Below, in pieces: positions 1-42,750 of a DNA stretch of 64,000 nucleotides. Position 1 is the stretch's first letter; each line of letters starts with the position of its first letter. Location: assembly GCA_951406725.2 (NCBI GenBank), contig OX597823.1:54808001-54872000 (forward strand). The letters are read 5' to 3'. Source of the DNA: Octopus vulgaris. Its lineage: Eukaryota. A program made the translations under genes and the position numbers. A model generated the notes under the pieces. That model saw only the letters and a list, made by a program, of their open reading frames with translations. It had not been told where the DNA came from and ran no database searches.

Positions 1-375
1 CATTAATTCAATAGCAACTGTAACAGTAAGAAGAGCAATAACAACATAATTAACAAGCCAATGAGGGGGCTGCCACATATTTGTTTGACCTGTGTAGAAA
101 TAGCAATCAAGTAGCCCTCAACTGATATCATACCGTTTCTAGAAGTAAGAAATAAACGTAAGATAATGTAGTCCTATATATATTTTACCTTTAAAAAAAA
201 GACAGGATAGCAACAGTTAGAAAGTCTTTGATGATAGAATAGCTTGATCAAGGATGATATGAGGCTACATCATGATAATAACAACAACATTGGCAACAGC
301 CGCTGTAGTAGCAGCAGCCACATCACCTGCGGTAACAACAAAATGAGAAAAAAGAACAGTGTGCTGCCAACTTAC

Positions 376-40779: not shown

Positions 40780-41526
40780 TTAAAATAACAGAAGCAAGCA
40801 ATAAAACAGATCTTACAATAAAATAAAACTGATGTAGTACACAATCTAATTCTACATCTCCAAAAGACAAAGCTGCGCAAGTGTCTTAGCAGCAACACTG
40901 AACTTCATGTGGTGCCGGTGTAGAAATGTGCATAAAATTGTTGAGAATATCATCATCACTGTCACCATCACCATCATCATCATGACCATTTAATGTCCAT
41001 TTTCCATGCTGGCATGGGTTGGATAGCTTGACAAGAGCTGGAAAGCCAAAGAACTGCACCAGGTTCCACTCGTCTGTTTCAGCATGGTTTCCATGGCCAG
41101 ATGCCCTTCTTAATACCAACCACTTTATAGAGTGTGCTGAGTGACTTTTACATGGCACCAGTATAGGCACTTTGCATGTGGCACCAGCATGGATGCTTTC
41201 TACGTGGCACCAGCATGGGTGCTTTTTACATGGAACCAGTGGGAGTGTATATTACTTTTACATGGCATTTCTAATTTAGGTGCAAGGCCAGCAATTTTAG
41301 GTGGAATGGTTTGTTGATATCAAAGTACCAGTCTAGACCCTGGCACTAGACTGATCGCTGATCATGTATGGAAAAATGGAGACCATCTCCCCTTGTGGGA
41401 TGAAATTAAAATAATAGACAGAGAGCACCACTGGAAAATACAAAAACTAAAAGAAGCAGCACATATGCTAGGACATAACAACTTCCTAAGCAGACTGAGT
41501 GCAGATATGAGCAGCAAATTGCCCAC

Positions 41527-41600
41527 GGGCATATGGCATAGTGGTTAAGAGTGCGGGCTACTAACCCCAAGATTCCGAGTTCGATTCTAAGCAGTAACCT
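41527..41600 (+). promoter_or_regulatory. tRNA-derived Pol III internal promoter (not an intact tRNA)
   Basis: A box tggcatagtgg 41534-41544, anticodon-like arm ggg-ctactaa-ccc, B box gagttcgattc 41577-41587; acceptor stem does not pair well. Confidence 0.7.
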
Positions 41601-41666
41601 GAACAATAATAATAATAACATTGAAAATATCATAAGAACGAGAACCCAGGTTCAAAATTTCCCCAT

Positions 41667-41710
41667 GACACCTGAAGAAGGCTGGAGGGTATATCAGCCG
41701 AAACGTGTTA
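41667..41710 (+). ncRNA. Minimal hammerhead ribozyme, cleavage-site region slightly damaged
   Basis: gacac-CTGAAGA-a-GGCTG-gagggtatat-CAGCC-GAAA-cgtgtt; stem III and stem I' overlap, suggesting a small deletion in this copy. Confidence 0.6.
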
Positions 41711-41771
41711 GCAACAAACAAGATGGGGACAAACATCTGTTGAATGTAAATAATGTAAATAATGTAAGTAA

Positions 41772-42750
41772 TAGACTGATACTTTGTTTTACAAACCCTG
41801 GAGGAACAAAAGGCAGAGTGATCTTAGAATGATTCGAACCCAGCATGTAAAGAACTAGCAAAAATATTGCTAGGCACTGTTGCCTATGTGTTAATGGTTC
41901 AGTCAATTCATTGCTTTAATCGTTTCTAATTTTGGAACAAGATCAGTAATTTTGAGGGAAGAATTAGTTAATAACATTAAGTGCACTACTCAAATGATAC
42001 TTCATTTTTTTTTTATCCTGAGAGGATGAAAAGCAAAACTGACTTTGGCTTGATTTGAACTCAGAACAAACAGCTGGAAAAAAGATGGGAAAGCATTTTG
42101 TCTGATGCTCTAATGTTTCTGCCAATCCATCACCCTTAATATTGGTTTCATATTTTGGCACAAGACCAGCATTTTATCGGGGGTGGGCGCAAGTCAGTTA
42201 CATCGACCCCAAGGCTTAAATAGTACTTACTTTATCAATCCTGAAAGGATGAAAGGCAAAGTTGACCCCAACAATATTTGAACTCAGAACTTAAAGTTGA
42301 AAGAAATGCCACTAAGTATTTTCTCTGGTTTGGTCACAGCTCTGCCGGCTCGCCATCTTCATCACCCTTAATGTTTGGACCTAACATAAGTAGAAGGTCA
42401 GAAATTTGGGGTTAAGGAAAGCTAGTTAAACTAATCTCAGATGTTGTGTGGCACTCGTTATTTTATTGACCCAGAAAGATTGAAAGTGCAAAGATGAACT
42501 TGGCAGGATTTGAACTCACAACATAACACTGCAACTATTGTGCCAATCCAATACTCTTATTATCTATCAATAATTGTTTCTAATCTAGGCACAAGGCTTG
42601 AAAGATTTGTGGAGAAAAAGAATGGGTTATATTAACCCCAGTACTTGATTGTACCATATTTTATTAATCCTTGAGAGATAAAAGGTAAAGTTGATCTCTG
42701 CAGGATCTGAACTGAAAACATAAAGACCTGTAACTAAATACTACAAGAAC
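41772..42750 (-). mobile_element. Head-to-tail cluster of about five decayed Nin-domain SINEs
   Basis: Variants of gaaaggatgaaaggcaaagttgac..atttgaactcagaac recur about every 220-240 bp. Confidence 0.75.

Follow-up and report, generated by a model that had tools for sequence, protein, structure and literature searches.

It is held that coding retrotransposons use Pol II and that only the non-coding SINEs and TRIMs use Pol III (PMC10886601). The accessible part of that paper describes the TRIMp3 elements Cassandra, Helenus and Ajax. These LTR elements are non-coding, measure 311-1,263 bp and possess PBS and PPT; a Pol III promoter derived from a small RNA lies inside their terminal repeat and makes the template RNA, and their autonomous partners are expected to use Pol II. 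In Schistosoma, the SINE-like SM-alpha and Sj-alpha repeats were described, in the available text of PMC6765202, as non-coding tandem repeats with a Pol III promoter followed by a hammerhead, which are processed by cleavage. Poseidon_Ac of the green anole has a single ORF for a reverse transcriptase (RT) together with a C-terminal GIY-YIG endonuclease, which overlaps a hammerhead, and it occurs in partial tandems and inverted copies with two 3' ends ~30 nt apart, the hammerhead being dispensable for insertion (PMC11167929, as far as accessible). tRNA-derived SINEs, among them OR2 of octopus, possess a tRNA head with A and B boxes and form copies of ~270 nt beginning at this head. The octopus SINEs OK, OR1 and OR2 are presumably of tRNA-Arg origin; OR2 has been named a CORE-SINE in the part of PMC4758252 that is available.

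In the following, one copy from a 64-kb stretch of Octopus vulgaris DNA, referred to as the window, and the family to which this copy belongs are described. The features listed above for Poseidon_Ac are also those of the octopus element, with the dispensability of the hammerhead being predicted in octopus. The accessible text of PMC11167929 contains no mention of a tRNA-derived head or a Pol III promoter, whereas the octopus copies mostly start at such a head and their unit is free of runs of four T (T4). The TRIMp3 elements carry their promoter in a comparable position, but in octopus the head belongs to a protein-coding, non-LTR element with truncated, inverted pseudo-LTRs and not two true LTRs. 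The order of Pol III promoter and hammerhead is that of SM-alpha and Sj-alpha, but the octopus element bears an ORF and its copies run past the cut. A place in the retrozyme/SM-alpha class was rejected, since the copies are dispersed and extend beyond the cut. The short octopus copies resemble tRNA-derived SINEs in their head and length, but they have the tail of a Penelope-like element instead of a LINE tail and form no separate lineage, the comparison with OK, OR1 and OR2 being one of descriptions. The class of tRNA-derived SINEs was also rejected, the head being native to an ORF-bearing element and its variants being common to short and long copies. As predicted here, the promoter works like those of TRIMp3 elements and SINEs, but the element is neither of these and is a member of the EN+ Penelope-like elements. 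In open-access text, copying from Pol III transcripts was found described for non-coding elements only, and no description of a Penelope element with a tRNA-type or Pol III promoter was found; Repbase or supplementary repeat libraries (e.g., PMC13282606) may already contain the family.

The copy in the window

The sequence at 41356-41771 of the window is a truncated copy of a Penelope/Poseidon-type retroelement. Its features are as follows; the head coordinates used below take the head's first G, at window position 41527, as 0.

41347..41355, plus strand: left target-site duplication (TSD) TAGACTGAT, exact; its final 2 nt also fit the element
41356..41516, plus strand: 3' end of the Penelope-like ORF (C-terminus of the GIY-YIG endonuclease), 5'-truncated; 56% identity to residues 782-835 of homologue P0003; contiguous with the RT in long copies L009 and L243
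41516..41517, plus strand: junction at which ~66 bp (ORF stop and linker) are missing; a similar, non-identical junction exists at L004 = L084
41520..41531, plus strand: mini-hairpin TGCCC-AC-GGGCA, where the RNA 5' end is inferred and where the cDNA of other copies snaps back
41527..41599, plus strand: tRNA-derived head, closest to tRNA-Arg (49/73 letters identical to a genomic tRNA-Arg), no cloverleaf
41534-41544, plus strand: A box TGGCATAGTGG, inside the head
41579-41587, plus strand: B box GTTCGATTC, inside the head
41603..41619, plus strand: (AAT)n microsatellite, variable in length; copy ends form their second cluster here (17/89 loci)
41638..41640, plus strand: position of the family ORF start codon; ATG in the majority, ACG in the window copy
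41667..41709, plus strand: minimal type I hammerhead, in the reading frame of the ORF; lacks 3 nt at the cleavage triplet in the window copy
41710..41771, plus strand: 3' part of the terminal repeat, as far as the tail-less start site of reverse transcription (about +235); in the family, 3' ends lie at +228..236 and +258..261
41772..41780, plus strand: right TSD TAGACTGAT, exact

The initial annotation had taken this sequence as a 416-bp mobile unit which was bracketed by a 9-bp TSD and had been inserted in one piece. This was borne out: the only two exact matches to TAGACTGAT in the 64-kb window are those at 41347-41355 and 41772-41780, and the interrupted repeat continues beyond the right TSD. 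When the flanks were joined and aligned to four neighbouring copies of this repeat, ~60% identity was obtained across the junction, with scores of 73-100 as compared to shuffle means of 28-30 (sd about 5). Long TSDs are atypical of the family, since no match of >=8 nt was found in 9/9 non-inverted copies checked.

The interrupted repeat (41267-41346 and 41781-41865) is old and ~170 bp in length. Further copies are located at 41915-42075, 42135-42310, 42370-42530 and 42565-42735, giving at least 5 copies within 1.5 kb. The sequence just upstream, 41001-41240, is a different abundant repeat, which matches the window at no fewer than 12 additional places.

A GIY-YIG-like C-terminus had been assigned to the left part of the unit, and the peptide of 41348-41530 confirmed it by 56% identity over 54 aa to the C-terminus of P0003, a full-length homologue of 847 aa (E 3e-21); Pfam gave no match for the endonuclease fragment of the window copy taken alone. 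The endonuclease end is fused to position -10 of the head via the microhomology CAT(A), and among 25 matches a similar junction was identified at one other locus (L004 = L084). This junction is compatible with a template jump at the RNA 5' end, and equally with a simple deletion. The A box, the B box and the hammerhead core were all recovered where the initial annotation had placed them, and its statement that no T4 run separates promoter and ribozyme holds for the whole of 41527-41771.

The family, its ORF and its tRNA-derived head

A genome search gave 7,817 first-look candidates, 40 of which were scored. The majority sequence derived from the fetched loci, with a depth of <12 in 5% of its columns, contains 835 open codons with YVDD at 535 and YxGET at 737. 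Its ORF begins with an ATG ~110 nt downstream of the head, passes through the hammerhead and the tail, and stops 29 nt before the next head. The unit is ordered as head, AAT repeat, ATG, in-frame hammerhead, tail, 835-codon RT-endonuclease ORF and head again, with the second head located where the promoter of a downstream tandem copy would be, as had been proposed. The frame spanning the hammerhead is also that of the N-terminus of P0003, and an intron after the hammerhead was dropped as an explanation, the reading frame being open straight through.

The RVT_1 profile matched at E 2.7e-6 with 27.7 bits, slightly below its cut-off of 29.6, and 2,914 protein homologues at E<=1e-20 were obtained among 7,990 scored; among solved structures, only weak RT matches were found for the family protein. 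RT and endonuclease are joined in the long copies L009 and L243. A terminal repeat with its tail continues into the beginning of the ORF in 7/52 long loci, and 56/89 hammerhead-anchored loci are inverted pairs. The 3' ends at +228..236 and +258..261, ~30 nt apart, usually occur once each per inverted pair, and loose ends of the family in RNA-seq are 31 nt apart. The family thereby combines RT plus C-terminal GIY-YIG domain in one ORF, partial tandems (pseudo-LTRs), inverted truncated copies, a one-sided tail of 30-40 bp and a minimal hammerhead in the repeat. By domain order and anatomy it is an EN+ Penelope-like element of the Penelope/Poseidon type, as judged from sequence, and its anatomy matches that given in the accessible part of PMC8557442. 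A search for a head-less sister family in the Octopus vulgaris genome returned this family alone.

The genome holds roughly 25,000 terminal-repeat arms of the family. Raw exact matches (3,455 for hammerhead, 624 for head, 492 for linker, 400 for endonuclease and 6,485 for tail) are misleading because the head is CpG-rich, and the counts were hence calibrated, giving ~28,000 tails, 23,000 hammerheads, 14,000 heads, 1,700 linkers and 1,700 endonucleases, the calibrated head count being noisy (7/162). Within 40 nt, the number of arms drops from ~14,000 at the head to ~1,700 at the linker, and it is still ~1,700 at the endonuclease.

The tRNA-type head is a fixed, native part of the terminal repeat of the family. 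All 30 linker-anchored loci run on into the head, which supports the initial annotation in assigning the head to this element instead of an independent SINE insertion. Among 30 head-anchored loci, no other shared body was found behind the head; the AAT repeat is the break point of several of these loci, and one breaks within the head. The proposed capture of a tRNA head stands in that the head sits in a Penelope-like element, but the capture is one of the whole family and not of the window copy.

The closest tRNA was a genomic tRNA-Arg, the best of 35 sequences from 8 isotypes, an incomplete isotype set. From the T of the A box to the G of the B box, 45 nt are counted, which is tRNA spacing as in type 2 Pol III transcription units, and the boxes of the family majority are TGGCGTAGTGG and GTTCGATTC. 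Neither head nor hammerhead was called by ARAGORN or by Rfam at E<=5; the head was identified by alignment, and the hammerhead by the layout of minimal hammerheads and alignment. On folding, head and hammerhead gave z-scores between -1.7 and +1.6 (+0.4 for the head), which is unremarkable.

Part of the B box is missing from some ORF-linked copies (L243, L251); in L243, the loss lies between two GATTCC repeats. Close to the B box, two CpG positions are changed in 27/94 long copies as compared to 13 and 18 of 133 short copies (uncorrected). Breaks are frequent at the internal (AAT)n tract, where other repeats have also entered (L156, L164, L170).

Copy ends, terminator runs and the polymerase

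For 51/89 hammerhead-anchored loci the 5' end was located at -25..+20 of the head, for 17 at the AAT repeat and for 13 further upstream. This set consists of the first 90 hammerhead matches listed on contig 1, all new loci, minus L048, which is the second arm of L047. It includes the five near-identical duplicated loci L092-L096, all of them long, and L045, which was mis-called as long of AAT; the count of 51/89 is conservative because these were kept. The end rate was 0.052/nt at -11..+5 and 0.0009-0.0015/nt in three other intervals, a 35-60-fold local excess. In a finer pass over 194 loci, from which L048, L093-L096 and L335 were dropped, the head was present in 105, with 94 ends at -9..+12 and the other 11 upstream of -23, the interval -10..-23 being free of ends. 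The modal end is -7 (21/105 loci), and 20 of these 21 are preceded by the snap-back A. This mode represents snap-back on TGCCC-AC-GGGCA, and the true RNA end is therefore placed somewhere in -12..-4. A Pol III start is spaced 18-20 nt before the A box, by which the start would be at -12, a pyrimidine-purine step. Taken together with the terminator runs considered below, we give roughly two chances in three to the prediction that the RNA starts at the head and is made by Pol III, and the element is likely to be copied from Pol III transcripts, as far as this can be read from its genomic copies.

The majority unit of 2,644 nt contains no T4 run (A4 31, C4 8, G4 0). Shuffling of synonymous codons in the ORF gave an expectation of 2.9 T4 runs (P 0.028), and a second null, in which Phe codons were drawn like other C/T boxes, one of 4.5 (P 0.006). 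With an earlier majority version, P was 0.003 for a mononucleotide and 0.07 for a dinucleotide shuffle, and an earlier test over 584 codons gave P 0.15. As controls, 80 metagenome loci were used, 23 of which have an open RT frame of >=550 codons. All 23 homologous ORFs of other organisms contain T4 runs (4-22, median 4.9 per kb), with 274 observed and 246 expected in sum, and the seven of similar T content have 4-9 each, the unit being a majority sequence and the controls single copies. Decayed natural copies of the family have a mean of 0.5 T4 per kb (32 stretches) as compared to the median of 4.9 in the homologues. Within 500 nt behind the ORF, A and B boxes were found in none of the 23 homologous ORFs. 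The T4 statistic is modest and G4 runs are absent as well, which counts against the Pol III reading.

An RNA starting at the head could also be made by Pol II, from an internal TATA-less promoter overlapping the head, with the tRNA boxes as a relic or helper. An internal, LINE-like promoter in the repeat is described for Drosophila Penelope in the accessible text of PMC2377424, and a capped RNA would account for translation of the ORF from the ATG ~110 nt downstream. This explanation predicts neither that A and B boxes spaced as in a tRNA are found intact directly at the start nor that T4 runs are lost specifically in the family, and we consider it unlikely.

It is more improbable still that the head is inert and dates from an old insertion into the 3' UTR, the pile-up being made only by snap-back of the mini-hairpin on a longer RNA and the ends being blurred by later centre deletions. 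The snap-back letter in 20/21 ends at -7 and the abundance of inverted pairs (56/89 loci) speak for such a trap, and since the modal end is itself the snap-back hairpin, a hairpin effect contributes to the pile-up. However, ~80% of the copies reaching the head stop there, whereas other hairpins, of the same energy, at -135, -205, -215 and +28 catch few ends or none: at most 3/60 ends were placed 10 nt or less from the stronger hairpin at -205, and 0/27 at -135. Non-inverted copies (L040, L116, L117, L123, L149 and L150) also end at -7..+4, and the absence of T4 would be left unexplained.

That the short copies are a separate non-autonomous SINE lineage moved by the Penelope protein, with ORF-linked copies such as that of the window as chimaeras, is largely refuted: the short copies outnumber the long ones ~8 to 1, are slightly younger (median divergence 4.1% as compared to 5.1%) and are enriched in one subfamily (39/115 as compared to 8/74 long, p 0.0003), and the window-copy junction resembles a template jump, but short (133) and long (94) arms have a common majority sequence with both subfamily haplotypes in each class, no variant is private to the short copies, and the passage from linker into head is native in 30/30 loci.

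Further observations bear on transcription by Pol III. Of the full-ORF loci with an upstream repeat, 0/7 reach back to the head, their ends being at 75-204, which counts against it, as does the length of a 2.9-kb transcript, since mobile elements known to use Pol III reach no more than 1,263 bp in the accessible part of PMC10886601. The route from a Pol III RNA to the protein is unexplained, which is a further point against it. In three RNA-seq runs and one contig set, unstranded coverage follows genomic copy number with both strands alike, as expected for passive read-through; no start peak was seen at the head, the query copy having a damaged B box.

The hammerhead and a proposed copying route

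The hammerhead consists of helix I (GACAC/GTGTT), the CTGAAGA core, helix II (GGCTG/CAGCC) and GAAA. With a helix I of 5 bp, an unpaired base before helix II and a palindromic ACGT helix III, the layout is that of the minimal form in the available text of PMC4209133, a form which presumably requires a dimer or protein. In the family majority the NUH site is intact, with GUU as the predicted cleavage triplet. An RNA of ~180 nt with a self-cleaved 3' end had been suggested. As the mobile form, such an RNA was not supported; copies end 55-60 and 85 nt past the cut, so that cleavage does not set their 3' end, and these ends are the signature of Penelope tails.

The cleavage region of the window copy had been called damaged, and 3 nt are indeed gone from the triplet, but this is a recurrent event of the whole family. 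The in-frame 3-nt loss (at window 41704-41705) was found in 332 exact matches as compared to 2,686 for the intact form, 11% of arms, and the gap frequency at the triplet is ~20% in sampled arms, with a median of 1.5%. That the loss marks a subfamily was rejected (p 0.18-0.48). Of 32 inverted pairs in which one arm was anchored on the loss, 22 have an intact other arm, 8 the same loss there and 2 another deletion, and the loss hits either arm. From the lack of subfamily linkage and the discordance of arms it follows that the loss arises anew per arm; the discordance also hints at separate copying of the two arms from RNA. The loss is possibly a scar of hammerhead cleavage in vivo, as its position suggests; slippage at the GU microhomology, during or after insertion, yields identical letters. 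Among 50 tail-anchored arms, only three have their start 1-2 nt away from the cut, where a palindrome is located.

Two other loci with hammerheads or hammerhead-like motifs were observed. L335 (G000:C2:2733500-2736800) is a near-identical, retrozyme-like head-to-tail array of ~215-bp units, comprising AAT repeat, hammerhead and tail without the tRNA head, with the 3-nt loss in most units. In L006, another repeat family lies upstream of the family copy and carries, at ~930-990, a further hammerhead-like motif (CTGATGA...GAAA), its helix II being a different one.

For the copying route, we propose that Pol III would start about 4-12 nt upstream of the head and that the protein of the element would prime reverse transcription internally at the tail sites; for Poseidon_Ac, internal priming at two tail sites was shown in vitro, according to the accessible text of PMC11167929. 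Priming in the first repeat would lead to run-off at the RNA 5' end after ~270 nt, often with snap-back, and could account for the abundance of SINE-like and inverted copies. If a read-through RNA were primed in its second repeat instead, the rarer ORF-bearing copies would result, for which a terminator-free ORF would be needed. Hammerhead cleavage would be dispensable for insertion; occasional cleavage, followed by a cDNA jump across the cut with re-annealing by GU on the 5' fragment, may cause the 3-nt loss. The protein would be translated from the Pol III RNA itself or from a separate Pol II RNA.

The full proposal is that of an autonomous coding retrotransposon which switched to Pol III, with a captured tRNA promoter, a terminator-free RNA of ~2.9 kb, an ORF purged of T4, SINE-like terminal-repeat copies flooding the genome and a 3-nt scar recording cleavage in vivo. 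In this combination it is held tentatively, at somewhat less than even odds.

In-cell cutting by these minimal hammerheads was undetectable in RNA-seq in the part of PMC11167929 that is available, and the recurrent loss at the cut site may be genomic evidence on such cutting. A start at the head would also give a sharp start site for the poorly known expression cycle of Penelope elements. If true, a Pol III start together with a T4-free ORF in a coding element would break the division between Pol II and Pol III, and it would show one way in which SINE-like families arise directly from their own autonomous parent.
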